A stretch of 64,000 nt of DNA from the NCBI GenBank assembly GCA_030390025.1, contig CM059432.1, positions 35,714,001 through 35,778,000 of the forward strand, in the 5' to 3' direction. A program made the position numbers and the translations under genes. This DNA comes from Squalus acanthias (lineage: Eukaryota). Shown in pieces: positions 10,611 through 64,000 of the stretch; position 1 is the stretch's first letter; each line of letters starts with the position of its first letter. Under the pieces are notes generated by a model. That model was given only the letters and a program-made list of their open reading frames with translations, was not told where the DNA came from and did not search any database.

Positions 10611-11220
10611 ATAAAAACAGAAAATGCTGGAAATACTCAGCAGGTCAGGCAGCATCTGTGAAGAGAGAAACAGAGTTAACGGCCGCGATTTTGCCGGCGC
10701 GCAGAGGGTGGGTTTGGAGGCGGATCCGGAGTTAAAATCAAAATGATTGACGGCGGGTTGCGAACCCGCCACCATCCCGCCTCCACGCAACTTTACAAAG
10801 TGTCGGGTCTGCGACTTCCGATCAGACCCGACACCAAGCAGTGGGAGAGCCATTTAAGGCAGTTAACAGCTTATTAACTACCTGGATAATCCTATTATGA
10901 GAGGCTTTTTCCATTTTGCAACATTTTCAGCGTGTTCCACGTTGTTTGACAAATACGCCAGCTGATTGTGTCGGGTACAGCAACAATCTGAATAGTTGAC
11001 AGCTGCAACTGCAACATAAAAGCTGACCTGCACCATGAATTCACTTTCAGATGCCAGAACTTTCTGTTTTGAGGATTTAGAACACATTTTCCAGGTGTAT
11101 TGAGGTTGTAAGTGTTTATTCTGAGATCCATATGCACTGTGACCTCCTTGGAATACCCTCTCCCCACATTGACTGAGCGCTTATAAAATCTCTTCCTCAA
11201 CTGCCATATATACCAGCAGA

Positions 11221-12453
11221 ATGGGAACCATTTATACTCTCTCATCCTGGTCCTCAGAATCGGAGGAAGAGCAGCCACGGCAGCAGCAGAACCAGGCACA
11301 CCAGCAGCACCAACAACCGGAGTGCCAACCTTCTCCTCAGCCACCTGATGCTGCACAGGGCAGAGGGCGTCAGTGCAGGAATGTACCGCGCCGCAGGAGA
11401 TACCCCCAACACAAGGTTTACAGGCCGAGGATGAGCTTCCTCAACATGAGTGAGCAGCAGTGCCAAAGGAGGCTGAGACTTTCGCGAGAGGTAGTCGCTG
11501 ACATTTGCACAATGCTGCAACAACACCTGCAGCCCAGAGAAGCGGGTGGACACTCCTTACCAGTGGCTGTCAAAGTCACCACCGCACTCAACTTCTTTGC
11601 TTCAGGGTCCTTTCAGGGATCAGCAGCAGACATCAGCGGCATTTCCCAGTCGGCCGCACACACTTGCATCACACAGGTTACCGATTCCCTGTTTGCCAAG
11701 TCGCACAATTACATCCACTTCTCAACGGATGAAGCAAGTGTTACCGCACGTGCGGTTGGCTTTGCAAATATGGCAGGCTTCCCAAGGGTGCAGGGCGTCA
11801 TAGACTGCACACATGTGGCCATTAGGGCACCCCATCACAACCCAGCTGTATTTGTGAACCGCACGGGCTTCCACTCCCTTAACGTCCAGCTGGTGTGTAA
11901 CCACAGGAAGAACATTATGCATGTTTGCGCCAAGTTCCCTGGCAGCTGCCATGACTCGTTCATCCTGCGGCAGTCCACTGTGCCTCAGCTGTTCAATCCG
12001 CCGACCCAACTTTCTGGATGGCTCCTTGGAGACAAGGGCTATCCCTTGAAGAAGTGGCTAATGACATCAATGAGGAGGCCATCAAACAAAGCTGAGGAGT
12101 GCTACAATGTGAGCCACATTTCCACCAGAAGCATCATAGAGCAAACCAGAGGCTTGCTCAAAATGCGATTCAGATGCCTGGACAGATCTGGTGGAGCCCG
12201 ACAGTACGCACCAGCCAGGGTGTCCAGAATCATCGTGGTCTGCTGTGCCCTGCACAACATCGCACAGCAGCGTGGCTTAGCGCTGCCTGAGAAACAAGTG
12301 GCTCAGCGCACAGCCTCCTCCTCAGAGGAGGAGCTGAGTGAGGCAGCAGATGAGGAAATCCTTGCGGAGGCGGCTGTGCCAGTGCCACCAGCACGCGAGC
12401 ACATTGCCGGCCATGAGGCAAGGGATACACTAATCCATGCCAGATTCGTGTAA
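11221..12453 (+). CDS. Harbinger DDE transposase (HARBI1-like), uninterrupted 410-aa ORF
   Basis: Motifs [73 protein letters not shown]. Confidence 0.92.
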
Positions 12454-12739: not shown

Positions 12740-14620
12740 CTATTTGTGTGTTAACTTTCTCTTACTCGTGCTTCTATGTGGTGCTTCCCCTGTGGCTTTA
12801 GCAGATGTAGAAGCAGCTTGCTCACTTCTCTGCTGCGCCTGCTTAGATGCCTTTGGCGGACGTCCTCTGGGTTTGGGAGCCTGGGAGGGCTCCGCAAAAG
12901 TCTGCTCCTCCTGCAGCTGTGCAGGGGCTGAAACAGCCATCTCAGTTGGGTGAGGAATCTGGGGCTCTGACTGAGGACTCCGCAGTGGCATGGGAGTGTG
13001 AGCAATTGGAGAGGAGTCCACACTTCCTTGTTGTCGACCACCAACATCCCTCTCATGGTCACCCGCACTTCACTAATAGCAAGTAGCTGGAGAGCACCTT
13101 GCTGCACTGCACATCAGTGGGGCCATGAGGACCCATTTCTGTGCTGACATTCCTCATAACAAGGAAGTCGATGAACTTCTGGTTTCTCTCCTCAATAGAT
13201 GACCATCTATTTAGAAGTGTTACCATGTTCTGCTGTGTCTGGCGATTTATGTCCTCCATGGAGATTGCCATCCTTTCCGTGGCGGCACCTACATTCGCCA
13301 TTGCGTGCACCACGGCATTGCTCATGTTTGACATGGAATCCTCCATTCTCTGCACACTTGCAAACCCTGTCGGAGCCTTCTGCACTTGTTCCTGAAGCTC
13401 CAGCACTGCTCTCTTTCTGGTTAGCCCCAGAGGCACAGCGTTCACATGCAGCTGAGCAGAGCTAGAAGCGTTCAGCACCAACCGACGAGGACGCTCCTCT
13501 GCTGTTCCTGTCTCCACCATCTGCTAATGCTCACTTGTGAGCTGTGATACACCAGGTGACAACACTACTCTATATCGCAAACTACCCACCGAGGTGTGCG
13601 TCTCTGCGCTGGTGCTGGGTGCGCTCATTTCCGCTGACGCTGCTCCCTCAGAGGCTGCAGCTTCATCTGAGGAGTCGTCTGGCTCTTCCTCCTGAACAGT
13701 GGGGAGGGGGGCTCTCGATGGTCCTGTGGGGAGTAAAGGCATGAGTTAGACATGTGATATTTAGGTAGCAGACACATCCCATTGTGCAGATGATCAGAAC
13801 TCAATCTGTATGAACATCAGATGCCATATCAGTCACTCATGAAATCTAAATGAGAGGGTTGCAAATCTGTTCTGTCACCAGCTTGCTGTACTGCGCCCAT
13901 CTCTCCGTCCCCCACTTCCAGCTCCTCTGCACCTCCGACGATCTCGATAGCAGCCTCCTCAGCGTTAGTTAAATGCGCCATGGAAGGTGGGCCTTCTCCT
14001 GTCCTCCCCCTCTCCCTCTTATTGTGGGCTCTCTTTTCCTGCAATGAGGGAACAAGTGGAGTTTGAGCGAAAATGTTGGAGTGAGTGTAGAGAATCCATA
14101 GCATAGATGCTTAGAGGGAGACAAAGATGGAGTGAGGTGCCAATACCAAGGGCCCTCCCTGTGCATTGTTAGTTGTTGTCATTGCATAACCGTGAGAGCG
14201 AGTGTGAGGGGTGCATAGTAGAATAGTGAAGTGATTCTGTACATAGAGAGAGAGGGATGGTTAAGGGTGCAATGGATGTAAGGGTAAGTTGGGATGTGCA
14301 GGAATAGGTTGACAATGCAGAGTGCTGGTGATGAGAAGAGATGGGAAGCAGATTGAAGGTAAGTGTGATGTTATACTCACTTGCTGAGCGTAGCAGATCA
14401 TTTAACCTTTTCCTGCACTGCACCCAGGTGCGTGCACACAAAGACCTAGCGCTAACATCCTCAGCAATTTGCAGACAGGCTGCCTTTGTGTGCTGAGGAG
14501 GCTTCCTCTCTCCATTGGAGGGGAACAGAACCTCCTTGCGCCCTCTTACTCCCTCCACAAGAGCATGGAGGGATTCATCATCAGAGCGGGGAGAAGCCTT
14601 TGTTCTTGGAGCAGTCATCT
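12740..14620 (-). pseudogene. Harbinger Myb/SANT-like DNA-binding partner gene, spliced and degenerate
   Basis: SANT-like segment LHALVEGV...LQIAEDVSARSLCARTWVQCRKRLNDL; gtgagt donor near 14380; acceptor at 14038 (EKRAHNKRERGRTG); in-frame TAG at 13524-13526; frameshift near 13060-13100. Confidence 0.8.
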
Positions 14621-15189
14621 CGCAAAGAATAGCACTCAGGAGCATCAGAAAGTTACTAAAACCCAAAGGCTGCATGGGCCCCTTAAATGCAGCTGAATCG
14701 AAGATGTCAGCAGAGGCGAGCAGCAGACCCAAACCCACTGATTGGGCCGGGTAACACGCATGGCGGGCTTAATAAGCTCATTAAAATTAAAATCGTTATC
14801 TCGGTGCGGCTGAAACCGGCAGCAGGACCAGAACCCACCAAACAACGAACCCAACGCGAACCCGCCTCCGCTGGGAAAATCCAGCCCAACGTTTCAGGTC
14901 GATGACCCTCCATCAGAACAACGGTCATCGACCTGAAACGTTAACTATGTTTCTCTCTCCACAGATGCTGCCTGACCTGCTTAAACCAACTTCATATGAG
15001 TATTTCCAGCATTTTCTGTTTTTATTTCAGATTTCCAGCATCCGCAGTATATTGCTTTTGTATAGGTGGGTAAATGGAGTTGAGGTACAGATCAGCCATG
15101 ATGTAATTGAATGATGAAACAGGCTTGAGGGGCTGAATTGCCTACTCCTGTTCCTAAGTGCTGTGATACATGATATAGAAACAAGTTGA

Positions 15190-29064: not shown

Positions 29065-32000
29065 AACCAATTTGGGAACAGATGAGAGAACATTCTGAGG
29101 GGGGGAGGGTGAACAGCCAGAGGTCGTGGTCCATATCGGTATCAACGACATAGGTAGAAAGAGGGATGAGGTCCGGCAGGCAGATTTTAGGGAGCTAGGA
29201 AAGAGATTCAAAAAGTAGGACCTCAAAGGTGGTAATCTCCGGATTACTCCTGGTGCCATGAGCTAGTGAGTATAGACATAGGAGGATAGAGCAGATAAAT
29301 GTGTGGCTGGAGAGATGGTGCAAGAGGGAGGACTTTAGATTCATGCGACCGGTTCTGGGGGAGGTGGGACCTGTACAAGCCGGACAGGTTGCACCTCAAC
29401 AGAGCCGGGACCAATATTCTCACGGGGGGTTTGCTAGTGCTGTTGGGGAGGGTTTAAAATAATTTGGCAGGGGAATGGGCACCAGGATGTACCATTAGAA
29501 AGGAGAAACAGAGTGCACAAAGGATTGGGAGAGACAGATAGCACTAGAGTAAGAAATAGTAAGGTATTAGGTGGGGTCAGACTGAGAGAGAATACAAGAA
29601 GGTGTAAGAGAGGTTTGCAGTGCATGTGTGTAAACGCACGAAGCGTGGTTAATAAGGTTGATGAGCTGCAGGCGCAAATAGCCTCATGGGAATATGATGT
29701 CGTGGCGATAACGGAGACCTGGCTCAAAAAAGGGCAGGATTGGGTATTAAATATTCCTGGATATAAGGTGTTCACGAAAGATATGGAAGGAAAGAAAGGA
29801 GGTGGGGTGGCAGTATTGGTTAAGGAGAATGTTACAGTGCTGGAGAGAGAGGATGTCCTGGAGGGATCAAGGACAGAATCTATTTGGTTAGAGTTGAGAA
29901 ATAATAGGGGTGCCATTACACTGCTGGGTTTATTCCATATGCCACCAACTAGTGGGAAGGATATAGAGGAGCAAATTTGCAGGGAAATTACAGAGAGGTG
30001 CAAGAACTATAGAGTAGTAATGGGGGACTTCAACTATCCTAATATAGACTGGGATAGCAATGTAAAGGGCAGAGAGGAGGAAGAATTTCTGAAGTGTGTT
30101 CAGGAGAACTATCTTGATCAGTACGTTTCCGGCCCAACGAGGAAGGAGGCATTGCTGGATCTGGTTCTGGTGAATGAGGTGGAGCAAGTGTCAGTAGGGG
30201 AACATTTATCATAGTATCATTAGGTTTAGATTAGCTATGGAAAAGGACAGGGAGCAATCTAGAGTAAAAAATACTTAATTGGAGGAAAGCCAATTTCAGT
30301 GGCCCAGGTAAATTGGAATCAAAGATTGGCAGGCAAAACTGTAATCGAACAATGGGCCTGCCTTTAAAAGGAGATGTTTGGAGTACAGTCGAGGTACATT
30401 CCCACAAGGGGAGAAAGGTAGGGCAACTAAAGCCACAGCTCCCTGGATGATGAAAGAGATAGAGAGTAGAATGTGTATGACAGATGTCAGGTTGAGAAAA
30501 CAAGTGAGAATCAGGCTGAATATAGAAAGTTCAGAGGGGAAGTGAAAAAGAAAATAAGAGGGGCAAAGAGAAAGTATGAGAATAGATTGGCAGCTAACAT
30601 AAAAGGGAATTTAAAAGTCTTCTATAGGCATATAAATAGTAAACGGGTAGTCAGAGGAGGGGTGGGGCCAATTAGGGACTAAAAAGGAGACCTACACATG
30701 GAGGCAGAGGGCATGGCTGAGGTACTAAATGAGTACTTTGCATCTGTCTTCACCAAGGAAGAAGATGCTGCCAAAGTCATAGTGAAAGAGGAGATAGTGG
30801 AGCTACTGGATGGGATAAAAATTAATAGAGGATGTACTAGAAAGGCTGGCTGTACTTAAAGTAGATAAGTCACCAGGACTGGATGGGATGCATCCTAGGA
30901 TGCTGAGGAAAGTTAAGGTGGAAATCGCGGAGGTACTGGCCATAATCTTCCAATCCTCCTTAGATACGGAATGGTGCCAGAGGACTGGAGAATTGCAAAA
31001 GTTACACCCTTGTTCAAAAAAGGGTGTAAAGATAAACCCAGCAACTACAGGCCAATCAGTTTAACCTCAGTAGTGGGGAAGCTTTTAGAAACAATAATCA
31101 GGGACAAAAGTAACAATCACTTACAAGTGTGAATTAATTAAGGAAAGCCAGCACGGATTTGTTAAAGACAAATCGTATTTCACTAACTTGATTGAGTTTT
31201 TTGATGAGATGACAGAGAGGGTTGATGAGGGCAATGTGGTTGATGTGGTGTACATGGACTTCCAAAAGGCGTTTGATAAAGTGCCACATAATAGGCTTGC
31301 CAGCAAAGTTGAAGCCCACAGAATAAAAGGGACAGTGGCAGCATGGATTCGAAATTGGCTAAGTAACAGGAAACAGAGAGTAGTGGTGAACGGTTGATTT
31401 TCGGACTGGAGGAAGGTATACAGTGGTGTTCCCCAGGGGTCGGTACCAGGGCCACGGCTTTTCTTGATGCATATAAATGACTTGGACTTGGGTGTACAGG
31501 GCACAATTTCAAAATTTGCAGATGACACAAAACTTGGAAGTATAGTGAACAGTGAGGAGAATAGTGATAGACTTCAAGAGGACATTGACAGGCTGGTGAA
31601 ATGGGCTGACACGTGGCAGATGAAATTTAATGCAGAAAAGTGCGAAGTGATACATTTTGGTTGGAAGAATGAAGAGAAGCAATATAAACTAAAGGCTACA
31701 ATTCTAAAGGGGATGCATGAACAGAGAGACCTGGGGGTATATGTGCACAAATTATTGAAGGTGGCAGGGCAGGTTGAGAAAGTGGTTAAAAAAGCAGACG
31801 GGATCTTGAGCTTCATAAATAGAGGCGTAGAGTACAAAATAGAGGCGTAGAGTACAAAAGCAAGGAAGTTATGATGAACCTTTATAAAACACTGGTTTGG
31901 CCTCAACTGGATTATTGTGTCTAATTCTGGGCACCACACGTTAAGAAGGATGTGAAGGCCTTAGAGAGGGTGCAGAAAAGATTTACGAGATTGATTCCAG

Positions 32001-32336
32001 GGATGAGGAACTTCAGTTACATGGATAGACTGGAGAAGCTGGGGCTGTTCTCCTTGGAGCAGAGAAGGTTGAGAGGAGATTTGATAAAGGTGTTCAAAAT
32101 CATGAGGGGTCTAGACTGAGTAGATAGAGAGAAACTGTTCCCATTGGTGGAAGGGTCGAGAACCAGAGGACACAGATTTAAGGTGATTCACGGAAGAACC
32201 AAAGGCAACATGAGGAGTGAGTGGTTAGGATCTGGAATGCACTGCCTGAAAGGATGGTGGCGGCAGACTCAATCGTGGCTTTCAAAAGGAAATTGGACAA
32301 GTACCTAAAAGGAAAAAAATTTGCAGAGCTACAGGG
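29065..32336 (+). mobile_element. Long degenerate CR1 (ORF1 esterase end, ORF2); its 3' end resumes at 36172-36279
   Basis: Endonuclease motifs NARS, AITETW, MGDFNYP and RT motifs with several frameshifts; interrupted by the younger CR1. Confidence 0.9.
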
Positions 32337-35300
32337 ATTACTCATTTAGTGAGTTGAACACACCGCGGGTAAAGGCTAGGTCAGACAGTAAATGGGTGAC
32401 CAAGAGGCAGGGCAATATCAGAAGGTAGTGCAGGAGTCCCCTGCGGTCGTCTCCCTCCAAAACAGATATACCGTTTTGGATACTGTTGGGGGAAATGACC
32501 TACCAGGGGAAGGCACCAGCAGCCAGGTTCATGGCACCATGGCTGGCTCTGCTGCACAGCAGGGCGGGAAAAAGAGTGGTAGAGCTATAGTGATAGGGGA
32601 CTCAATTGTAAGGGGAATAGACAGGAGTTTCTATGGCCGCAACCGAGATTCCAGGATGGTATGTTGCCTCCCTGGTGCAAGGGTCAAGGATGTCTCGGAG
32701 CGGCTGCAGAACATTCTGGAAAGGGAGGGTGAAGAGCCAGCTGTCGTGGTGCATGTAGGTACCAACGATATAGGTAAAAAGCGGGAAGAGGTCCTACAAG
32801 CAGAATTTAGGGAGCTAGGAGCTAAATTGAAAAGTAGGACCTCAAAGGTAGTAATCTCTGGGTTGCTACCAGTGCCACGTGCTAATCAGAGTAGCATGAA
32901 CAGGATAGCGAGATTAAATACGTGGCTTGAGCAGTGGTGCAGGAGGGAGGGATTCAAATACCTGAGGCATTGGAACCAGTTCTGGGGAAGTGGGACCTGT
33001 ACAAAAGGGACGGTCTGCACTTGGGCAGGACTGGAACCGATGTCCTCGGGGTAATATTTGCTAAGGCAGTTCGGGAGGATTTAAACTAATATGGCAGGGG
33101 AATGGGAACCTATGTAGCGAAACAGGGGGAAGTAATATGCAGTCAGAAACAAATGTTAGAAGGGTGAGAAACAATAAGGGAAATCCGAGTAAACAAAGGC
33201 AAGAAACACAAAGGGCCATACTAAATCATAAGTCTAAAAGGACAAAGGGTGTTAATAAAACAAGCCTAAAGGCTCTGTGTCTTAATGCAAGGAGTATCCG
33301 TAATAAGGTGGATGAATTGACTGTGCAAATTGATGTTAACGGATATGATGTGATTGGGATTACAGAGACGTGGCTCCAGAACAATCAAGGCTGGGAACTG
33401 AATATCCAGGGGTATTCAACATTCAGGAAGGATAGAATAAAAGGAAAAGGGGGTGGGGTAGCATTGCTGGTTAAAAAGGAGATTAATGCAATAGCTAGGA
33501 AGGACATTAGCTTGGAGGATGTGGAATCAATATGGGTCGAGCTGCAGAACACCAAAGGGCAGAAAACGTTAGTGGGGGTTGTGTACAGACCTCCAAACAG
33601 TAGTAGTGAGGTGGGGGAGGGTATGAAATAGGAAATCAGAGGTGCATGCAAAAAAGGCGCAGCAGTTATCATGGGTGACTTTAATATGCATATAGATTGG
33701 GCTACTCAAACTGGAAGCAATACGGTGGAGGAGGATTTCCTGGAGTGTTTAAGGGATGGTTTCCTAAACCAATATGTTGAGGAAACAACTAGAGGGGAGG
33801 CCATCCTGGACTGGGTGTTGTGTAATGAGGAAGGACTAATCAGCAATCTTGTGGTACGAGGCCCCTTGGGGAAGAGTGATCATAGTATGGTGGAGTTCTA
33901 CATTAGGATGGAGAAGGAAACAGTTAATTCAGAGACCATGGTCCAGAACTTAAATAAGGGCAACTTTGAGGGTATGAGGCGTGAATTGGCGAGGTTAGAT
34001 TGGCAAGCGATATTTAAGGGGTTATCAGTGGAAGGGCAATGGCAGACATTTAGAGATCGCATGGATGAACTACAGCAATTGTACATCCCTGTCTGGCGTA
34101 AAAATAAAAAAGGGAAGGTGGCTCAACCATGGCTAACAAGGGAAATCAGGGATAGTATTAAAAGCAAGGAAGTGGCATACAAATTGGCCAGAAGTAGCAG
34201 CAAACCCGGGACTGGGAGAACTTTAAAACTCAGCAGAGGAGGACGAAGGGTTTGATTAGGGCAGGGAAAATAAAATATGAAAGGAAGCTTGCGGAGAACA
34301 TTAAAACGGACTGCAAAAGCTTCTATAAATATGTAAAAAGAAAGAGGTTAGTAAAAACAAACGTAGGTCCCCTGCAGTCAGAAACAGGGGAAGTCATAAT
34401 GGGGAACAAAGAAATGGCAGATCAATTGAACAAGTACTTTGGTTCGGTGTTTACTGTGGAGGACACAAACAACCTTCCGGAAATAAAAGAGATCAAAGGA
34501 TCTGGTAAGAGGGAGGAGCTGAGGGAAATCCTTATCAGTCGGGAAAAGGTGTTGGGGAAATTGATGGGACTGAAGGCTGATAAATCCCCAGGGCCTGATG
34601 GTCTGCATCCCAGAGTACTTAAGGAGGTGGCCTTGGAAATAGTGGATGCATTGACGATCATTTTCCAACATTCCTTAGACTCTGGATCAGTTCCGAAGGA
34701 GTGGAGGGTGGCTAATGTAACCCCTCTTTTTAAAAAAGGAGGGAGGGAGAAAGCAGGGAATTATAGACCAGTCAGCCTGACATCGGTGGTGGGTAAAATG
34801 ATGGAATCAATTATTAAAGATGTCATAACAGACCATTTGGAAAGTGGCGACATGATAGGTCCAAGTCAGCATGGATTTGTGATAGGGAAATCATGCTTGA
34901 CAAATCTTCTGGAATTTTTTGAGGGTGTTTCCAATAGGGTGGACGGGGGGGAACCAGTAGATGTGGTGTATTTGGACTTTCAGAAGGCCTTCGACAAGGT
35001 CCCACACAAGAGATTGGTGTGCAAAGTTAAAGCACATGGGATTGGGGGTAATGTGTTGACGTGGATTGAGAACTGGTTGGCACACAGGAAACAAAGAGTA
35101 GGAGTAAATGGGTACTTTTCAGAATGGCAGGCAGTGACCAGCGGGGTACCGCAGGGTTCGGTGCTGGGGCCCCAGCTGTTTACATTATATATTAATGATT
35201 TGGACGAAGGGATTAATTGTAATATCTCCAAATTTGCGGATGACACTAAATTGGGAGGCAGTGTGAACAATGAGGAGGATGCTAGGAGGCTACAGAGTGA

Positions 35301-36171
35301 CTTGGACAGGTTGGGTGAATGGGCAAATGTATGGCAGATGAAGTACAATGTGGATAAATGTGAGGTTATCCACTTTGGTGGTAAAAATAGGGAGGCAGAC
35401 TATTACCTGAATGGTGGCAGATTAGGGAAAGGGGAGGTGCAACGAGACCTGGGCGTCATGGTACATCAGTCACTGAAGGTGGGAAGGCAAGTGCAGCAGG
35501 CAGTCAAGAAAGCAAATGGCATGATGGCCTTCATAGCAAGGGGATTTGAGTACAGGAGTAGGGAGGTGATGCTACAGTTGTACAGGGCCTTGGTGAGGCC
35601 ACACCTGGAGTATTGTGTGCAGTTTTGGTCTCCTAACTTGAGGAAGGACATTCTTGCTATTGAGGGAGTGCAACGAAGGTTCACTAGATTGATTCCTGGG
35701 ATGGCCAGACTGACATATCAAGAAAGACTGGATCAACTGAACTTGTATCCTCTGGAGTTCAGAAGAATGAGGGGGGATCTTATAGAGACGTTTAAAATCC
35801 TGACTGGTTTAGACAAATTAGATGCGGGCAGAATGTTTCCAATGTTAGGGAAAACTAAAACCAGGGGTCACAGTCTAAGGATAAAGGGGAAGCCATTTAA
35901 GACTGAGATGAGGAGGAACTTCTTCACCCAGAGAGTGGTGAATCTGTGGAATTCTCTACCACAGAAGGTTGTTGAGGCCAGTTCGCTAAATATATTCAAA
36001 AGGGAGTTAGATATAATACTCACAACTAGGGGGATCAAGGGGTATGGCGAGAAAGCAGGAATGGGGTACTGAGGTAGCATGTTCAGCCAGGAACGCATTG
36101 AATGGCGGTGCAGGCTCGAAGGACCGAATGGTCTACTCCTGCACCTATTTTCTATGTTTCTATGTTTCTAT
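32337..36171 (+). mobile_element. Young near-full-length CR1 (ORF1 SGNH esterase, ORF2 APE-RT)
   Basis: GDSIVRG and VHVGTND esterase motifs; ORF2 33080-36072 with one stop (33629) and one frameshift (~34205); 606-aa open RT; (tttctatg)n tail. Confidence 0.95.
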
Positions 36172-36978
36172 GAAAGGGCGGGGAGTGGGATTAGCTGAAG
36201 TGCTCTTGCAGAGAGCCGGCACAGGCTCGACGGGCCGAATGACCTCCTTCTGTGCTGTAACCATTCTACGATTCTATGAGGAAGACAATGTTGGAATGAG
36301 GATGAGAAACCTCCACAGGGCAAGGGGAGATCCCAACAGTCTATTCATCTTGATTGAATTTCAGTTCCCTTCCACAATGTGGGTCTGGGCTGTTCTGGGA
36401 GCAGAGAGGAGTCCCTTTTTCTCATTTATTGAGTTCCATTAGAAGTGTTGGAGTATTGTTGGAATCTACTGACCATTAATTCCATTCTTCGTTATGTTGA
36501 TATTCTACATGTTGGAATGAATGACAGTTTCTATTTACACAGTTGGCTATCTGTTTTTTGTAATTGGTGGTTCCAGTTTAAACCTATAACTTATTTAAAA
36601 CAAGAAAGAACTTGTAGGCACCAGGGAGGGTTATAGGCACCAAGCCAGCATCACCCCTTTGTGTGGCACAATTCGCCAACGCACTCCGTCAACATTGAGT
36701 ATTATTTTACCCCTCCAAAGAAGCATCTGAGGCGTTCCCCAAAAGCTTAGCTGTTTGAGGCATTAAATACTCCAGTCACAGGGATCTGGAAGGTCCCAGG
36801 TTTGTTTCTTGACATGTGCTAAGTTGATTGATCAGAGCCTTTATAGCATTGCGGGTGCTACTACTGGTCTTCGAATTTTGGAGTTGGAGAAATTGGCCAG
36901 AGGTGGTCCTCCTGATTGGTACCTAGCAACTGTATGCCTACATCGGGTGAGGACAGGATTGGATTTGACTCTGACACC

Positions 36979-39577
36979 TAGGGTTGCAAAATTCCGGGAA
37001 TTTTTAAAAGAGGAAACTTTCCATGGGAATTTTCGGGAATTTATGGGAATTTTGGGAATTTATGGGAATTTTGAGTTTTTTTGCACACTGATGGTTTTTG
37101 TCTCTGACCCTTATAACAAAATAGACATACTGTTCCATACAAATAAAAACAGGCTTTCAAAACTTTATTTAGGTTATAATTTTGAACTTTATTGAACCCC
37201 CACAAAAAAGACCCATCTAAAATAAAATAAAAAGAGCGTCAGCTTATTTAGCCTGTAATTTGTTCTTATTTTGTCCCTTTGAGTCTTCTACTCATGAGTT
37301 TTCTGAGTCTTCTACTCATCATTGCTCCTCCTGATTCTCTGACTCTGGCTCTGACGTGTCCATTTCCTCCTCTGTGTCACTGTCTAGCTGTGTGGTGGAC
37401 ACTTCTGTATCTGGCTCAATAAGTTGTAGGTTCGCCCGGATAGCCACCAGTTTCTCCACTCTCTTGTTAGTCAACCTGTTGCGCACCTTTTGTATGCGTA
37501 TTCCCAGTTTCGTTCAGAGGCCGCTGATGAAGGTGGGATTTGGAGTATCGCCGATGCAATGGGTGACAGGGCCTCAGATGCACAAAGTCCCTTCCACCAG
37601 GTATGTGCACTGATATGCTTGCATGATTCCCATATCCCGTCCCCATTCCAAAGACCTTGCTTGGTAGAGAACTTTGCCAGACTTCCCAGAACTTTGCCCA
37701 CGTCCAGATTGAGGTGGCGTGAGAGGGTAGAAATCACACTGTAAGCGCTGTTGATCTGTTCTCCAGAAAGTATTGGTCTCCCAACATGCTTTGGGTCCAG
37801 CATGTATGCTGCAGCATGAATCAGCTTGACACAAAATTCTTGACGCATCTGTATGAATTGAACAATTGCCTTCTCCTCTGCTTTGAGCAGTAGGGATGTG
37901 GGTAGGGCAATGCTGATTTGTTCTTTTAAAACAGCAAAAAGCCTGAGAACATCTGACAAGACAGCGTCATCTCCTTCAATCTGAGCAATTGCAGATGCTA
38001 CTGGTGAGAGTAGTTAAAGGCTGCTAACCACTCTCTCCCAAAACACATCATCCAGCAGTATTTTCTTGATGGTGGTTTCCATATCCACAGACTGGGATAT
38101 TGCCATTTCTTGCAGCGACTCCTTACCCTCCAGAAGGCTGTTGTACATTATGACAACGCCACCCCATCTAGTGTTGCTGGGCAGCTTCAGTGTGGTGTTC
38201 TTGTTCTTTGTTGTTTGCTTGGAGTTGTAGGTTGCTGCAACTACCTGTTTTCCCCTGACATACTAAACAACTTGCTTGGCTCTCTTGTACAGTGTTTCCA
38301 TGGTTCTCAAACCCATGATGTCCTTGAGGAGCAGGTTGAGCCCATGAGCTGCGCACCCAATAGATGAGGGTAGGCCTCCTCCACTTAAGCCCAAGCAGCC
38401 TTCATATTCGCAGCATTGTCAGTAACTACTGCAAAGACCTTTTGTGATCCAAGATCGTTGATGACCGCTTTCAGCTCATCAGCAATGTATGTGCCTGTGT
38501 GTCTGTTGTCCTTCGTGTCTGTGCTCTTGAAGAACACTGGGAGAGGAGTGGAGACGATGTAGTTTATGATGCCCTCCCCTCGTACATTTGACCACCCATC
38601 TGAGATAACTGCAACACAGTCTGCCATCTCTATTGTTTCTCTGAGCTTTCCTTGGACTCTGTTATACTCAGCCTCCAGCAAATAAGTAGACAAAGCATGT
38701 CTGGTGGGAGGACAGTATGCAGGGCGAATAACATTGAAAAATCTCTTCCAGTACACATTGGCTGTGAGCATGAGGGGTGAGCCTGTCGCATATACAGCTC
38801 GAGCAAGGCACTCATCTGCATTCTTCTGGCTATGGTTATCCATTGTATCAAAGAACCTTCCAAGTGGGCCAGGAGTTGCTGATGATAAGGAGCCTGATGC
38901 TGAATGTGAACCATCATCTTCTTGAATGGAAGCAGGGGAACTCTGGGCTGACTGCTGTGAGCTTTGAGTGAAGTTGTTGCATTTGGATAAATGCTGCTGC
39001 ATCTTTGTGGCATTCTTTACATATGGCTTTGTACAGTGTTTGCACATGTACACAGTCTTTCCATCTTTAATGCCTGGGGTAAAATGCTTCCACACATCCG
39101 ACGGTAAACGTGGCATTGTTCTATGCAGAGAAATAAAGGGCATTCGTCTCTGTGTCGAACTGCGGTCGATCAGCACGATTGCAACAGGCCAGGGTGAGTA
39201 AATTTTTCCTGATGCTCCATGTGATGGAAGCATGACCTGTGCACGCACGATGCTACATCACCATTAGAGGGAGCTAATCGCTCATCCACTCATCTAACCA
39301 ATCAGGACACATTTGTTCACAGTCACACACAAAACTTGTAATTATTAAAACAAGCCAAGTAAGAAGATAAACATATATTGATTAAGAAATTCCTTAATAA
39401 TTAAGATTCCATCTCTGTTAGTAATTTTAAGAGAGGACCTGTGGGAAAAAAAAGAAAAGACAAAAAAAAAACAATATTATGCTAGCATGTGCTTTTTTGG
39501 GCAAAATTCCCAAGCTAAACTTCCTGTGGAAAATTTCCGGAAATTTACCGGAAACTTTCCACCCCTTTGCAACCCTA
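36979..39577 (-). mobile_element. hAT DNA transposon, full length (2.6 kb)
   Basis: Perfect 12-bp TIR TAGGGTTGCAAA; perfect 8-bp TSD ctgacacc (36971-36978, 39578-39585); subterminal gggaattt/ggaaattt repeats. Confidence 0.95.
37330..39116 (-). pseudogene. hAT transposase (BED finger, DUF659-type core, dimerization domain), disrupted
   Basis: VWKHF...CKHC...H...C BED finger; ISDGWSN; VVTDNAANMKAAW; AAYMLDP; WWKGLC...LQIPPSSAASERNW; split across frames by stops and frameshifts. Confidence 0.85.
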
Positions 39578-54685: not shown

Positions 54686-57322
54686 GGGGCTAAAAATTCG
54701 ATTGCATAGTTATTTGGGCGCTACGGGTGCCGTTTTGGGTCAAAAATGGCATTTGAGCCACGCGTGCACACTTATGGTGTAGGCCGTGCCAGTTGCCATC
54801 TTGGTGAGGATGTTAGCATCGGCGTTGCAAGCGTGCACCAGAAGTATGTAGAGTAGGTAGATCGTGATGTCAATCAATGCGCAGCCATTTTCGTCTTCAA
54901 CACAGGAACTAAAGCCCTATGTTAACCTCGCACAGCTGAACATGCATTCAGCAGCTGCAAGGATCCCCTACCAGCGATATTTAAAGGGATCATCAACCAC
55001 ACTCAGGTGAGTTGCTGATTAATTTCTACTGACTCTGTAAGTTTGTGGAAGTGTTTGGAGCTTTCTAGAAGTGTGTAAAGTTGGTGAGGTGATGGAGTGG
55101 TGCTGCAAGTGGAGAAGGCTTTGGGCTGGATTTTCAATGACCCGTGGAGCCGGGTTTGGAGGCGTGTGGGGGGTTAAAGTTGCAGATTCGGGGGTCCCGA
55201 CTCCATTCCGCCTCCACACAATTTTGACAAAATCGGTCGCAGGGGTTCCCGACTCCGTCCCGCCTCCAAGAGGCGGGAGAGGCCATTAAAGCCCTTAACA
55301 AGCCCTAAATTGGCTCTGTAATGCCATTTTGAAACGTTTTAGCTAGTTTAACCCTTTTCCGACGTGAAGTACGCCTGATGTGAAACACGCCAGTGAAACC
55401 TGGCGGGAGCACAAGTGGATAGCTGACTATCAGCTGCAGGTCCACTATTAGAACGGAGATGTGATGAAGGTAGTAGTAGTATTAGGTCTGAAAGTCGCCT
55501 CTGATGCTGCTGCATTGAATGTCTTCAGAGACTGCATGGGAGCACTTGGTTGCAAAAAAAAGTCTGTCTGTCTGTGTCTCTCTGTGTCTCTCTGTCTGTG
55601 TCTGTCTCTCTGAGATGCTGCTCATTTTGCATCCAGGTCCTCTCACAGCAAAGGCCAGGCAATCTCTGAGACCAGGCAGTCTCTGACCTGCAATGATGAC
55701 ATCATCAGAGGCGACTTTCAGACTGAAACCACTAATTGGTTCATGGGTTCCCACATGCTGGAACTCAATTGCCCAATTAAGTGAAAATTGCATCAATCTC
55801 CCACATCCAATTGCAGGCGGGTGGATAACACGAAATGCGGATGACACGACCCCAACCCGACCCCAAGACAAAATCCAGCCCTATGGTTCTGACTTCAAGG
55901 GTTCTGGTCAGACCACTTGCTCCTAGTCAAGGTGCTCTAGCTGTCATCCCCCTTAGCCTGCAACATGACAAGGAGATTGAGCAAAGGCAGCGAAGAAGAG
56001 GACAAGCTGCTCGCAGAGGGAGGGGGAGAAGGGCTCTCATCAGGAGGCCTTACCCCCCCCCCTGTGGTTTTCCAAGAGCAATTCTCTTACTTCAACCTGA
56101 GCCAGGAGCAGTGTATGAGGCGTCTGTGTTTTATGAAGGAGGTGCTCACAGAACTCTGTCACTTCTTGCAACCAGACCTGCAGCCTTCCACCAGGGCAAG
56201 GACAGCGCTGCCAGTGGCTGTTAAGGTGACCGTGGCCCTGAATTTCTTGGCGTCGGGATCTTTCCAGGCTGGAGCAGGCAACATCTGTAACATCTCCCAG
56301 TTCGCCAACCGCTGCTGCATAAGAGAGGTGACAGACGCTCTTTATGCCAGGAGAGGGGAGTTCATTGCCTTCTCTATGACCAGCGAGAAGCAGGCAGAGC
56401 GTGCATGTGGTTTTGCCAAGGTAGTGGGCTTTCCCCATGGTGCAGGGCGCCTTTGCATGCACATGGCTTTACATCTAAATGCTGAGATGTACCTCAACCG
56501 CAAAGGTTATCGCTCGCTGAATGTCCAGTTGGTGTGCGACCATGCTCCGCACATCATGATGGTGAATGCCCGGTATCCTGGCAGAACATAAGAACATAAG
56601 AAATAGGAGTAGGAGTAGGCCATTCGGCCCTCGAGCCTGCTCCACCATTCAATAAGATCATGGCTGATCTGATCTCGGCCTCAACTGCACTTCCCTGCAG
56701 TCATGATGCTTTTATTCTGCACCAGTTCGCTGTTCCCTCAGTCTTTGAACCACCAAGACAAACCAAAGGGTGGCTACTGGGCAAAAAGGGCTATCCGCTG
56801 ACTACGTGTCTCATGATTCCGCTCTGCAACCCAACCACACATGGGCAGCATGCGTACAATGAGAGCCATGCTGCGACACAAAATCTGGCATCCTTAAACA
56901 ATGCTTATGCTGCCTGGACCGCTCTGGAGGAGCCTTGCAGTACTTCCCAAAGCGCGTCCCAATGCTGCATGCTCCACAACCTCGCCATCATGAGGGCACA
57001 GCACTTTCCACCAGGCATACTGCGACCAGCTGAAAGATGAGGACGCGGAAGGGAGGAAGCAACCCAGACAGCCCCACTGTGCCCGGGCTGTCCGTGATCG
57101 GCTCATCGACTGCGGTACAAATGAACGCAGCCCCAATTCCCCATTCAACAATACTCCTACACCTTACCTTCCCTCTGTTACTGACCATCACAGCGTCCTC
57201 TTAGCTTGCATGACAGAAGTCTGAGCTTCCACTGCAGCACTCGGACGTTGGGTGGCTTGTGCTTGTGCTCCAATGGAAGCGATCCCCGTGCCCATTTTCG
57301 GGGGCAAACTAATTTCTATGCC
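54686..57322 (+). mobile_element. Degenerate Harbinger transposon with transposase remnants (55965-57040)
   Basis: [47 protein letters not shown] fragments; ends ggggctaaaaatt / aatttctatgcc; CR1 3' tail inserted at ~56586-56695. Confidence 0.8.
55123..55881. mobile_element. Harbinger MITE nested in the degenerate Harbinger
   Basis: Perfect 12-bp TIR gggctggatttt / aaaatccagccc, identical to the right end of element 10681-14887; flanks TTT/TAT. Confidence 0.8.
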
Positions 57323-60043: not shown

Positions 60044-63000
60044 AGAGTCATAGAGTCATACAGCACGGATAGAGGCCCTTCGGCCCATCGTGTCCGCGCC
60101 GGCCATCAAGCCCTGTCTAATCTAATCCCATATTCCAGCATTTGGTCCGTAGCCTTGTATGCTATGGCATTTCAAGTGCTCATCCAAATGCTTCTTGAAT
60201 GTTGTGAGGGTTCCTGCCTCCACAACCCTTTCAAGCAGTGAGTTCCAGACTCCAACCACCCTCTGGGTGAAAAAGTTCTTTCTCAAATCCCTTCTAAACC
60301 TCCCGCCCTTTACCTTGAATCTATGCCCCCTTGTTATAGACCCCTCTACTAAGGGAAAAAGCTCCTTAGTATCCATCCTATCTATGCCCCTCATGATTTT
60401 GTACACCTCAATCATGTCCCCCCTCAGCCTCCTCTGCTCCAAGGAAAACAAACCCAATCTGCCCAGTCTCTCTTCATAGCTGAAGCACTCCAGCCCGGGT
60501 AACATTCTGGTGAATCTCCTCTGCACCCTCTCCAAAGCGATCACATCCTTCCTGTAGTGTGGCGACCAGAACTGCACACAGTATTCCAGATGTGGCCTAA
60601 CCAGTGTTTTATACAGCTCCATCATAACCTCCTTGCTCTTGCATTCATTAGCCGAGGCATAGAATATAAGTATCCCATATGCCTTTTTTACCACCTTATC
60701 CACCTGTTCCGCCGCCTTCAGGGATCTGTGTACTTGCACACCAAGATCCCTCTGACCCTCCGTCTTGCCTAGGGTCTTACCATTCATTGTATATTCCCTT
60801 GCCTTGTTAGTCCCTACAAAGTGCATCACCTCGCACTTTTCCGGATTAAATTCCATTTGCCACTGTTCCGCCCATCTGACCAACCCATCTATATCATCCT
60901 GCAGACTGAGGTTACCCTCCTCGCTATTTACCACCCTACCAATTTTTGTATCATCCGCGAACTTACTGATCATACCTTTTACATTCATATCCAAGTCGTT
61001 AATGTAGACCACAAACAGCAAGGGACCCAGCACTGATCCCTGTGGTACCCCACTGGCCACAGGCTTCCAGTCACAAAAACAACCTTCGACCATCACCCTC
61101 TGCCTTCTGCCACTGAGCCAGTTTTGTATCCAATGTGCCAAGGCACCCTGGATTCCATGGGCTCTTACCTTCTTGACCAGTCTCCTGTGCGGGACTTTAT
61201 CGAAGGCCTTACTGAAATCCATGTATACCACATCCACTGCGTTACCCTCATCCACACACCTAGTCACCCCCTCAAAAAATTCAATCAAATTAGTCAGACA
61301 TGATCTTCCCTTGACAAAGCCATGTTGGCTAACCCTGATTAATCCTTGCCTCTCCAAGTGGAGACTGATTTTGTCCCTCAGAATTTTTTCCAATAATTTT
61401 CCTGCCACTGATGTTAGGCTCACTGGCCTGTAGTTCCCCGGTTTTTCCCTACTCCCTTTCTTGAATAATGGTACTACATTAGCGGTACTCCAGTCCTCTG
61501 GCACATCCCCTGTGGCCAGAGAGGTTCTGAATATATGTGTTAGAGCCCCCGCAATCTCCTCCTTTGCCTCACACAGCAGCCTGGGATACATTTCGTCCGG
61601 ACCTGGGGATTTATCCATTTTCAGACCTGCTAAAACCGCCAATACCTCCTCCCTCTCGATGTTAAAATGTTCGAGTATATCACAGTCCCCCTGCCCTAAT
61701 TTTATGTCTGCATCGTCCTTCTCCATAGTGAAAATAGATGCAAAAAATTCATTTAGAACCCCACCTACATCTTCCGGCTCCACACACAGATTGCCACTTT
61801 TGTCCCTAATGGGCCCTATTTTTTCCCTAGTTATCCTCTTACCCTTAATATACTTATAAAACATCTTAGGATTTTCCTTTATTTTGCTCGCCCCTCTTTG
61901 ATCTCCTAATTTCTTTTTTAAGTATCCCCCTGCACTTTTTGTACTCCTCTAGTGCTTCCTCCTTCTTTAGCATTTTGTATCTGCCAAAAGCCCTCCTTTT
62001 TTTCCTGATCCATTCTCATATATCCCCTGACATCCAAGGTTCCCTGCGGTTTTTGGAACCACCCTTGACCTTTACGGGAACATGCTGCCATTGTATGATC
62101 ACAATCTCCCTTCTGAAAGAATCCCATTGCTCCGATGCGGATTTTCCTACAAGCAGCTGATCCCAGTCCATTTTGGCCAGATCCTGCCTTATCCTATTAA
62201 AATCGGCCTTCCCCCAATTTAGAACCTTTATTTCCGGCCCATCCCTGTCCTTTTCCATGACCACCTTAAATCTCACCGTATTATGGTCACTGTCACCAAA
62301 GTGCTCACCTACTAGCACTTCTTCCACTTGGCCGGCCACATTCCCTAGAATTAGGTCCAGTACCACCCCCTCTCTTGTAGGACTTTCTACATGCTGGCTC
62401 AAAAAGCTCTCCTGGATGCACTTTAAGAATTCCGCACCCTCTAAGCCTTTCACACTCTGACTATCCCAGTTAATATTGGGGAAGTTGAAATCCCCCATTA
62501 TTATTACCCTATTATTTGCACATTTCTCTGAGATTTGCCTACATATCTGTTCCTCTATCTCCCCCTGACTGTTTGGGGGCCTATAGTACGCTCCCAGCAA
62601 AGTGCTTGCCCCCTTTTTGTTTTTAACCTCCACCCATATAGCCTCATTGGAGGAACCTGCTAATATATCATCCCTCCTTATGGCAGTAATTGATTCGTTA
62701 ATTAATATTGCGACACCCCCTCCTCTTATACCTCCCCCTCTGTCTCGCCTCAAGATTCTGTACCCCGGAATATTGAGCTGCCAGTCTTGCCCCTCCCTCA
62801 ACCATGTCTCCGTGATAGCAACAATATCATACTCCCATGTGTTTATCAACACCTTCAGTTCATCCACCTTATTCGCTAGACTCCTTGCATTAAAATAGAT
62901 GCCTTCCAGCCTTGCTCTTACATGTTTGCCCTGTCTTCCAAGCGGACTTGTTTTTTTCTCTATATTTGACTGTACATCACCCCCTATTGTAGCTCCACTC

Positions 63001-64000
63001 TGAATCCCATCCCCCTGCCAAGTTAGTTTAAACCCCCTCCCAACAGTGCTAGCAAACCTCCCCGCAAGGATATTTGTCTCGCTCTGGTTCAGGTGCAAAC
63101 CGTCCGACTTGTACAAGTCCCACCTTCCCCAGAAGCAGGCCCAGTGATCCAGGAAACTAAAACCCTCCCTCCTGCACCAACTCTTTAGCCACGCATTCAT
63201 CTGTTCTATCCTCCTATTCCTATACTCACTAGCACGTGGCACTGGGAGTAATCCAGAGATTACAACCTTTGAGGTCCTGCTCTTTAATCTGCTGCCTAGC
63301 TCCCTAAATTCTTGATGCAGGACCTCATCCCCCTTCCTACCTATGTCGTTGGTCCCAATGTGAACCACGACCTCTGCCTGCTCACCCTCCCCCTTAAGAA
63401 TGCCCTGTAGCCGCTCAGTGACATCCATGACCCTGGCCCCAGGGAGGCAACAAACCATCCTGGAGTCACTTTTACGGCCACAGAAACGCCTATCTGTTCC
63501 CCTTACGATAGAATCCCCTACCACTATTGCTCTCCCACTCTTTTTCCTCCCTTTCTGAGCAGCAGAAGCAACCCTGGTGCCAGGAAGTTGGCTGCTGCCG
63601 CTCTCCCCTGGTGAGTCATCCCCCTCAACAGTATCCAAATCGGTATACCTGTTTGAAAGGGGGATGACCGCAGGGGTTCCCTGTACTCCCTGCCTGCCTC
63701 TGCTGCTCCGCCTGATGGTCACCCATTTCCCTTCTGCCTGTGCAGCCCTACCCTGCGGCGTGACCAACTCGTTAAACGTGCTATCCACGACCCTCTCAGC
63801 ATCGCGTATGCTCCAAAACTCATCCACCCGCAGCTCAAGCGCCGCAATGCGGTCTACAAGTAGCTGCAACTCGATGCATTTCTCGCACACGTGGTCCCCA
63901 GGGACACTGGCAGCGTCCCTGAATTCCCACATGGAGCAAGAGGAGCATAACACGGGGCTGATCTCACCTGTCATGACCTACTCCCTTAATTAAATTTAAA
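60044..64000 (-). mobile_element. Young near-full-length CR1 (zinc finger/leucine zipper/esterase ORF1, APE-RT ORF2)
   Basis: ORF 62016-63974 (CxxC...CxxC, GDSIVRG, HIGTND, then the endonuclease in the same frame); 580-aa RT ORF 60122-61864; (tatgactc)n tail at ~60044-60060. Confidence 0.95.

Follow-up and report, generated by a model that had tools for sequence, protein, structure and literature searches.

How the second open reading frame (ORF2) of LINE retrotransposons is translated is considered an open and important question, with reinitiation and IRES ideas among those listed (PMC3894237). This question is raised by a stretch of 64,000 nt from Squalus acanthias (contig CM059432.1, positions 35,714,001 to 35,778,000; hereafter, the window), in which three divergent copies of CR1-like elements (A, B and C) carry TTTAAAC or a close variant at the boundary of ORF1 and ORF2, followed directly by a stop codon. 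A sequence-only reading of the window had proposed that here ORF1 and ORF2 are joined by programmed -1 ribosomal frameshifting.

Elements and junctions in the window

ORF1 of these elements contains an SGNH esterase domain (Pfam PF13472; PDB 4C1B, E 7e-41), and ORF2 encodes an APE endonuclease, then a reverse transcriptase (PF03372, PF14529, PF00078). Copies A and C end in short 8-base tandem repeats without poly(A), as is usual for CR1. The closest ORF1 homologues come from cartilaginous fishes. The elements appear to be vertebrate CR1 LINEs, a label based on ORF1 homology and the 3' end. Vertebrate CR1 elements have been described with two ORFs (PMC4120745, PMC2734521, PMC11835228), and those with a type IVB ORF1 (zinc finger/leucine zipper and esterase; subgroup CR1_7, PMC4120745) share with the window copies an esterase ORF1 with Cys pairs; the APE endonuclease and reverse transcriptase of ORF2 and the 8-base 3' repeats are likewise common to both, and the window-type ORF1 is homologous to those of bird and turtle elements. 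The features of the three copies are as follows.

32392..33089, plus strand: 3' part of the CR1 ORF1 of copy A with the SGNH/GDSL esterase domain (Pfam Lipase_GDSL_2, E 6.8e-12), 5'-truncated and disrupted by a one-base loss near 32983
33062..33064, plus strand: stop codon of the ORF2 (-1) frame in copy A, closing the overlap upstream (the sixth codon before the heptamer in 9/10 shark lineages, the third in amniote loci)
33080..33086, plus strand: slippery heptamer T_TTA_AAC of copy A (last base of an Asp codon, Leu, Asn), present in 30/30 family copies
33087..33089, plus strand: ORF1 stop codon of copy A, TAA (TAG in other lineages), adjoining the heptamer
33097..33106, plus strand: G-rich tract of copy A starting 11 nt after the heptamer, candidate stimulator (from the column profile; position kept from shark to bird-like copies)
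33086..33283, plus strand: open -1-frame linker to the endonuclease in copy A, with length and residues varying between lineages
33284..36072, plus strand: ORF2 of copy A, encoding endonuclease and reverse transcriptase, interrupted by a stop (33629-33631) and, near 34207, by a frameshift
36150..36172, plus strand: 3'-terminal tandem repeats of copy A, with a unit of 8 bases
29453..29462, plus strand: junction of copy B, variant T_TTA_AAA and TAA (family form T_TTA_AAC)
29470..29479, plus strand: G-rich tract of copy B
63023..63032, minus strand: junction TTTAAAC-TAA of copy C, out of slippery phase in this copy
63033..63041, minus strand: G run of variable length preceding the heptamer of copy C, with 8 bases in the modal form and 9 in this copy, the latter fusing ORF1 and ORF2
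63006..63015, minus strand: G-rich tract of copy C
62016..63977, minus strand: 653-codon frame of copy C with a zinc-finger-like N terminus, esterase and endonuclease

All three copies are damaged, and this limits what each of them can tell about the junction. In copy A (at 33 kb) TTTAAAC at 33080-33086 and TAA at 33087-33089 lie exactly where they had been reported, while the claim that ORF1 ends there holds for the family of copy A and not for the copy itself: a base is missing near 32983 (in 36/40 best genome matches the sequence is longer by one base), which makes ORF1 of this copy end at 33054, so that reading through to the heptamer is a property of the family only. The junction TTTAAAA-TAA of copy B (at 29 kb) is likewise correctly placed at 29453-29462; its AAA is private to this copy, the family having TTTAAAC in 27/30, TTTAAGC in 2/30 and TTTAAAA in 1/30 cases, and its ORF1 is decayed. 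In copy C (at 63 kb) TTTAAAC-TAA is indeed present at 63032-63023 of the minus strand, but as a slippery site it fails there, because a 9-base G-rich run at 63041-63033 (minus strand) puts ORF1 and ORF2 in a single frame of 653 codons (63977-62016) and the heptamer out of phase. The remaining observations on the window were reproduced: all three copies keep TGGCAGGGG(G/A)ATGGG downstream of the heptamer, their -1 frames run stop-free into the endonuclease (Pfam Exo_endo_phos), and copy C has no Met upstream of IIMGDFN. A 10-mer of the TTTAAAC-TAA type is not rare per se (5 matches in the window, 2 of them outside any junction), so the evidence resides in its position and codon choice.

Copy A starts immediately after copy B, near 32335, and its tail is adjoined by another short element with a CR1-like 3' end (36174-36278). 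An exact 20-base tandem duplication is seen at 31820-31859, in the 3' part of copy B coding for reverse transcriptase. Elsewhere the window contains frames that resemble, by their motifs, PIF/Harbinger transposases and a facing Myb/SANT-like partner (11173-12453, plus strand; 13059-14768, minus strand; 55941-56591, plus strand), and others that resemble a broken hAT-type transposase with a zinc finger (37471-39257, minus strand).

Conservation of the heptamer in the shark and across vertebrates

Junctions were gathered by DNA and protein searches of the same genome and from 40 evenly spaced 10-kb stretches; most of the sample comes from the similarity searches, as the 40 stretches gave only 4 junctions (TTTAAAC and a stop in 4/4, one of them mis-anchored in later placement). 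The end of ORF1 was placed by tblastn with the last 8 residues omitted from the anchor. Among the 202 junctions found (a few loci were fetched twice), 151 are in phase, that is, have Leu-Asn or the stop at the predicted place, and the remaining 51 are indel-displaced or decayed. At the in-phase junctions, whose copies are not independent, the Leu codon is TTA in 146/146 cases and the Asn codon is AAC in 143/145, compared with TTA in 20/142 Leu codons (14%) and AAC in 23/64 Asn codons (36%) elsewhere in ORF1. The base before TTA is T in 147/151, though its codon varies, encoding Gly, Ala, Asp, Cys, Ser, Arg or Val.

As copies within a family are not independent, the junctions were clustered by linker, and ten real copies served as lineage representatives, picked for an open linker, with one (L223, TTTAAGC) swapped for a modal copy (L255). 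With this swap, all ten have T_TTA_AAC followed by TAA or TAG, while 4-fold sites of ORF1 agree among the ten lineages at 0.59 (642/1096), and other invariant Leu and Gly columns of ORF1 use four codons each.

In Gly-ending lineages (29447-29459 in the window, family C junctions) a second heptamer, G_GGT_TTA, overlaps the first one codon upstream; its counterpart in family A is G_GAT_TTA, and Ala-ending lineages have none. Tandem slip sites are thus possible in the Gly-ending lineages.

Beyond the shark, 113/183 ORF1 homologues end in Leu-Asn; most of the other 70/183 appear to be truncated or mis-modelled. In the first search, of 46 homologues in which DxLHL lies 20-32 residues before the C terminus, 43 have this end. 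The sources of Leu-Asn-type ORF1 include sharks, rays, Callorhinchus, Xenopus, Leptobrachium, Zootoca, Podarcis, Varanus, turtles and birds, and both residues are invariant in 20/20 aligned proteins. The DNA-level comparison covers sharks and bird-like loci, and frogs, lizards and turtles were compared by protein. The bird-like loci come from a metagenome scan (44 loci, bird-like by best protein matches, most from one sample), in which 27/44 could be anchored and 3 of these end before the junction. The 24 junction sequences left comprise 13 with exact TTTAAAC in phase, 2 exact but indel-displaced nearby, 5 with 1-3 substitutions and 4 unreadable; they are the fair amniote count, the five amniote representatives used below having been chosen by the motif itself. 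Shark and amniote 4-fold sites agree at 0.32 (141/445), which is near saturation. The phase of the heptamer, whose loss across CR1 junctions had been named as an argument against frameshifting, is thus held. By these comparisons the heptamer is ancient and under selection at the nucleotide level, beyond the need of the protein.

In the zebrafish LINE esterase chain of known structure (4C1B, 171 residues), the last residue lies two profile columns short of Leu-Asn. This suggests that the esterase fold does not need these residues, although the end of the construct may not be the native terminus. On the other side, the Leu may lie on the hydrophobic face of the last helix, and the outcome of an NNT-only test on the residue before Leu-Asn (incompatible in 1/113 proteins) is matched by the buried positions -6, -7 and -9 (2/113 each).

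Some CR1 ORF1 proteins are filed as SGNH hydrolases of Pseudomonas aeruginosa or Klebsiella pneumoniae on 3-4 kb contigs (P0007, P0103), probably due to contamination with host DNA. No relative was found in viral contigs searched with shark and amniote ORF1, and prokaryote genome contigs gave a single 506-base piece without the junction.

The start of ORF2 and the rival explanations

ORF1 and ORF2 overlap by 13-22 nt (22 or 13) with the heptamer inside, and downstream of it the -1 frame is preferentially open. In the first 40 linker codons of 201 unselected copies there are 86 stops in the -1 frame vs 614 and 527 in the other frames, and the linker is open in 169/201 copies in the -1 frame vs 6 and 11 in the others. 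Sharks have linkers of 44-66 codons and amniote copies of 36-94, and the residues show little similarity; from the heptamer onward the linker behaves as coding sequence.

A conserved AUG start of ORF2, which would speak against frameshifting, was looked for and none was found, the Met codons being absent or unaligned. No Met precedes the first endonuclease Asn in 4/10 shark lineages and 3/5 amniote copies, nor in any of the 30 copies of family C (30/30). Where present, Met lies at -3 to -68 codons from this Asn, with no position common to lineages; in families A and D an in-frame Met is seen 16-19 codons into the linker (25/31 and 25/30 copies), which makes the case less clean. Without a Met aligned across lineages, a conserved AUG start for ORF2 is excluded; the same argument has been used for closterovirus ORF2 (PMC3542737).

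Frozen synonymous positions of the heptamer, the overlap of 13-22 nt, the coding linker and the absent or unaligned Met codons favour -1 frameshifting, and the fusion proposed initially from the window fits this comparative evidence. It is therefore likely that CR1 elements with an esterase ORF1 produce an ORF1-ORF2 fusion by programmed -1 frameshifting at U_UUA_AAC with the adjoining stop.

Termination-reinitiation without a fixed AUG, in which ribosomes restart at or near the ORF1 stop in the -1 frame, with the heptamer and the G tract serving as a cis signal, would account for the open linker and the missing Met as well; loss of the AUG fits reinitiation of the L1 type, and L1 ORF2 is not known to need an AUG for its restart. 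The stop adjoins the motif in every lineage, no frameshift-stimulating structure was found, and the stop-start of SART1 (PMC3894237) is a further precedent. However, restarting leaves unexplained why an exact X_XXY_YYZ stands in the phase of the 0 frame with ORF2 always in -1, and an ORF2-frame AUG near the stop is absent in most lineages. We consider this explanation, the main rival, unlikely. Two specific forms of it were rejected: the UGGGA element of viral reinitiation is not conserved, being absent within 130 nt upstream in 4/5 amniote copies, and coupling of the SART1 type does not agree with an ORF2-frame ATG within 10 nt of the ORF1 stop in only 1/15 representatives.

All readings other than frameshifting and reinitiation have, even jointly, a low probability, slightly below that of reinitiation. 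A protein constraint in two frames, namely the Leu-Asn end of ORF1 and a Phe-Lys-Leu N terminus of ORF2 begun upstream, would freeze synonymous sites, and the Leu fits the last helix. Yet a stop closes the ORF2 frame 6 codons before the heptamer in 9/10 shark lineages and 3 codons before it in amniote copies, and the interval contains no Met; moreover, TTC and AAG would be tolerable for Phe and Lys and are not seen as lineage forms, and the related solved esterase lacks the Leu-Asn positions, making such a constraint very improbable.

Equally hard to credit is a separate ORF2 RNA, arising by splicing into the junction or from an internal promoter, with the motif as an RNA-processing signal. 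AG does precede the G tract in most lineages, and G runs act as splicing signals, but neither a polypyrimidine tract nor a conserved GT is seen, and AG is missing at this place in families D. Contigs bridging the junction without a joint or a heptamer change weigh weakly against it, as they come from four runs guessed to be RNA and maybe DNA (two studies, two organisms).

The last candidate, polymerase slippage in the upstream G run yielding a share of fused transcripts, draws on the G8 run of family C and on its 9-base copies fused in the genome, but families A, D and F and the amniote copies keep the heptamer without such a run, and on a tree of limited resolution the fused copies do not group together (9 changes vs 11.2 shuffled, 39/500 shuffles as low), so that we give this explanation hardly any weight.

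The fused copies of family C deserve a separate description. The 30 copies nearest to copy C, a query that favours the 9-base form, include 15 in phase, 11 fused and 4 otherwise shifted; among 28 C-like copies picked by protein search, 15 have the modal 8-base in-phase form and 6 are fused. Depending on the way of selection, the fused share of family C is about a tenth to a third (L032, L033, L040-L047, L214, L278, L280). Open frames of >400 codons were seen in 13/130 matches, one of them, a fused family C copy, being of 1290 codons. A single fused lineage was considered and is not supported, the fused copies being scattered on the poorly resolved tree of 40 copies, as expected from repeated slips in the G run. 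A predicted protein of Hypanus sabinus (P0034) also has ORF1, linker and the beginning of the endonuclease in a single frame, like copy C.

The downstream region, the proposed mechanism and its relatives

In a textbook -1 signal the slip site is followed, at 5-9 nt, by a stimulatory structure that it requires (PMC3542737), and the stimulator is the weakest part of the frameshift model. The suggested search for a downstream hairpin or pseudoknot came out negative: in the 90 nt after the stop, no fold is shared by the 15 representatives (z-scores of -2.1 to +1.84 vs shuffles, from folding of nested structures; the region is poor in C), and no conserved hairpin or pseudoknot was found. The G-quadruplex scores of the tract (1.0-1.52) are unremarkable, as similar values occur elsewhere in these G-rich elements. 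Nor is a long-range pairing partner of the G tract shared by six near-complete copies, whose best partners differ; 3/6 have a match about 655-666 nt upstream in ORF1, with energy no better than others and without a shuffled control. The description of the signal as gag-pol style thus suits the slip site and not the RNA downstream. What is conserved is the G-rich tract 11-20 bases after the heptamer, with G at four positions in 15/15 representatives. Two of the four are third-codon positions, and the codon at one of these encodes Gln, Lys or Gly; conservation falls off after about base 22 downstream of the heptamer.

Under -1 frameshifting, most ribosomes translating ORF1 would reach UUA AAC, terminate at the adjoining stop and release ORF1p. 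In a minority, tRNA-Leu and tRNA-Asn would shift from UUA AAC to UUU AAA, the heptamer being among the most shift-prone ones on mammalian ribosomes (PMC5009743). After such tandem slippage the first new codon past Asn would be the linker Leu (CTA), the Phe-Lys of the -1 frame overlapping the slip site, and the slipped ribosomes would read through the linker into the endonuclease and reverse transcriptase, producing a fusion of roughly 1,300 residues. This would set a high ratio of ORF1p to ORF2p and keep the enzyme attached to the particle formed by ORF1p. More tentatively, a pause might be caused by the G-rich tract when it reaches the entry channel of the ribosome, through a bound protein or a G-quadruplex, with the adjoining stop possibly adding to it and no role for a pseudoknot.

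As an X_XXY_YYZ site between a structural ORF and the ORF of a polymerase, the proposed signal resembles coronavirus 1a/1b and retroviral gag-pol, and the heptamer is the same U_UUA_AAC as in the coronavirus IBV (PMC5009743). Unlike these systems, the CR1 junction has no downstream pseudoknot or hairpin that could be found, the overlap is 13-22 nt, and the element has no protease, so any fusion would remain uncleaved, barring cleavage of the linker by a host enzyme. In nsp2 of the arterivirus PRRSV, too, a short primary-sequence motif takes the place of a structure, at 11 nt 3' of the slip site (PMC5009743), and the CR1 tract may be analogous to it; however, the C-rich motif of PRRSV binds nsp1beta with PCBP, whereas the tract of CR1 is G-rich, and its binder is only hypothetical.

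Among LINEs, L1 and SART1 share with CR1 a bicistronic RNA and low ORF2 output. L1 has a spacer between the ORFs and uses termination-reinitiation, and both L1 and SART1 give free ORF2p. SART1 has a UAAUG stop-start (PMC3894237), whereas in CR1 the frames overlap on a slippery heptamer with no common AUG. ORF2 of Dictyostelium TRE5-A and TRE3-A is stated to require a -1 frameshift (PMC5911963), so this kind of expression is already known among LINEs; these are APE-type non-LTR elements as well, but of another clade and with another ORF1.

No proposal of frameshifting for CR1 was found in the literature searched; the original 1997 papers on chicken and turtle CR1, which lie outside its coverage, may remark on the overlap, as may Repbase-type consensus descriptions. 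A 2016 review of frameshifting (PMC5009743) names HeT-A and TART among non-LTR elements, with no mention of CR1 in the part searched, and in passages of PMC2734521, PMC4120745, PMC11835228, PMC4255032 and PMC8764243 no mechanism of CR1 ORF2 translation is given.

Where annotation takes the first Met as the beginning of ORF2, a part of the endonuclease is lost in several lineages. If -1 frameshifting is true, the CR1 answer to the translation of ORF2 differs from that of L1, the enzyme would have to be redefined as a fusion with the ORF1 domains, and the junction would be a natural vertebrate -1 signal without evident structure. In its broadest form, which we put forward as a speculation with the balance of probability against it, such a fusion may have been made since the origin of jawed vertebrates by the LINE that dominates in sharks, amphibians, reptiles and birds, using a structure-free signal with a host G-run-binding protein or a quadruplex as the switch at the ribosome entry channel; this would mirror the C-rich signal of arteriviruses and place retrotransposition under host control.
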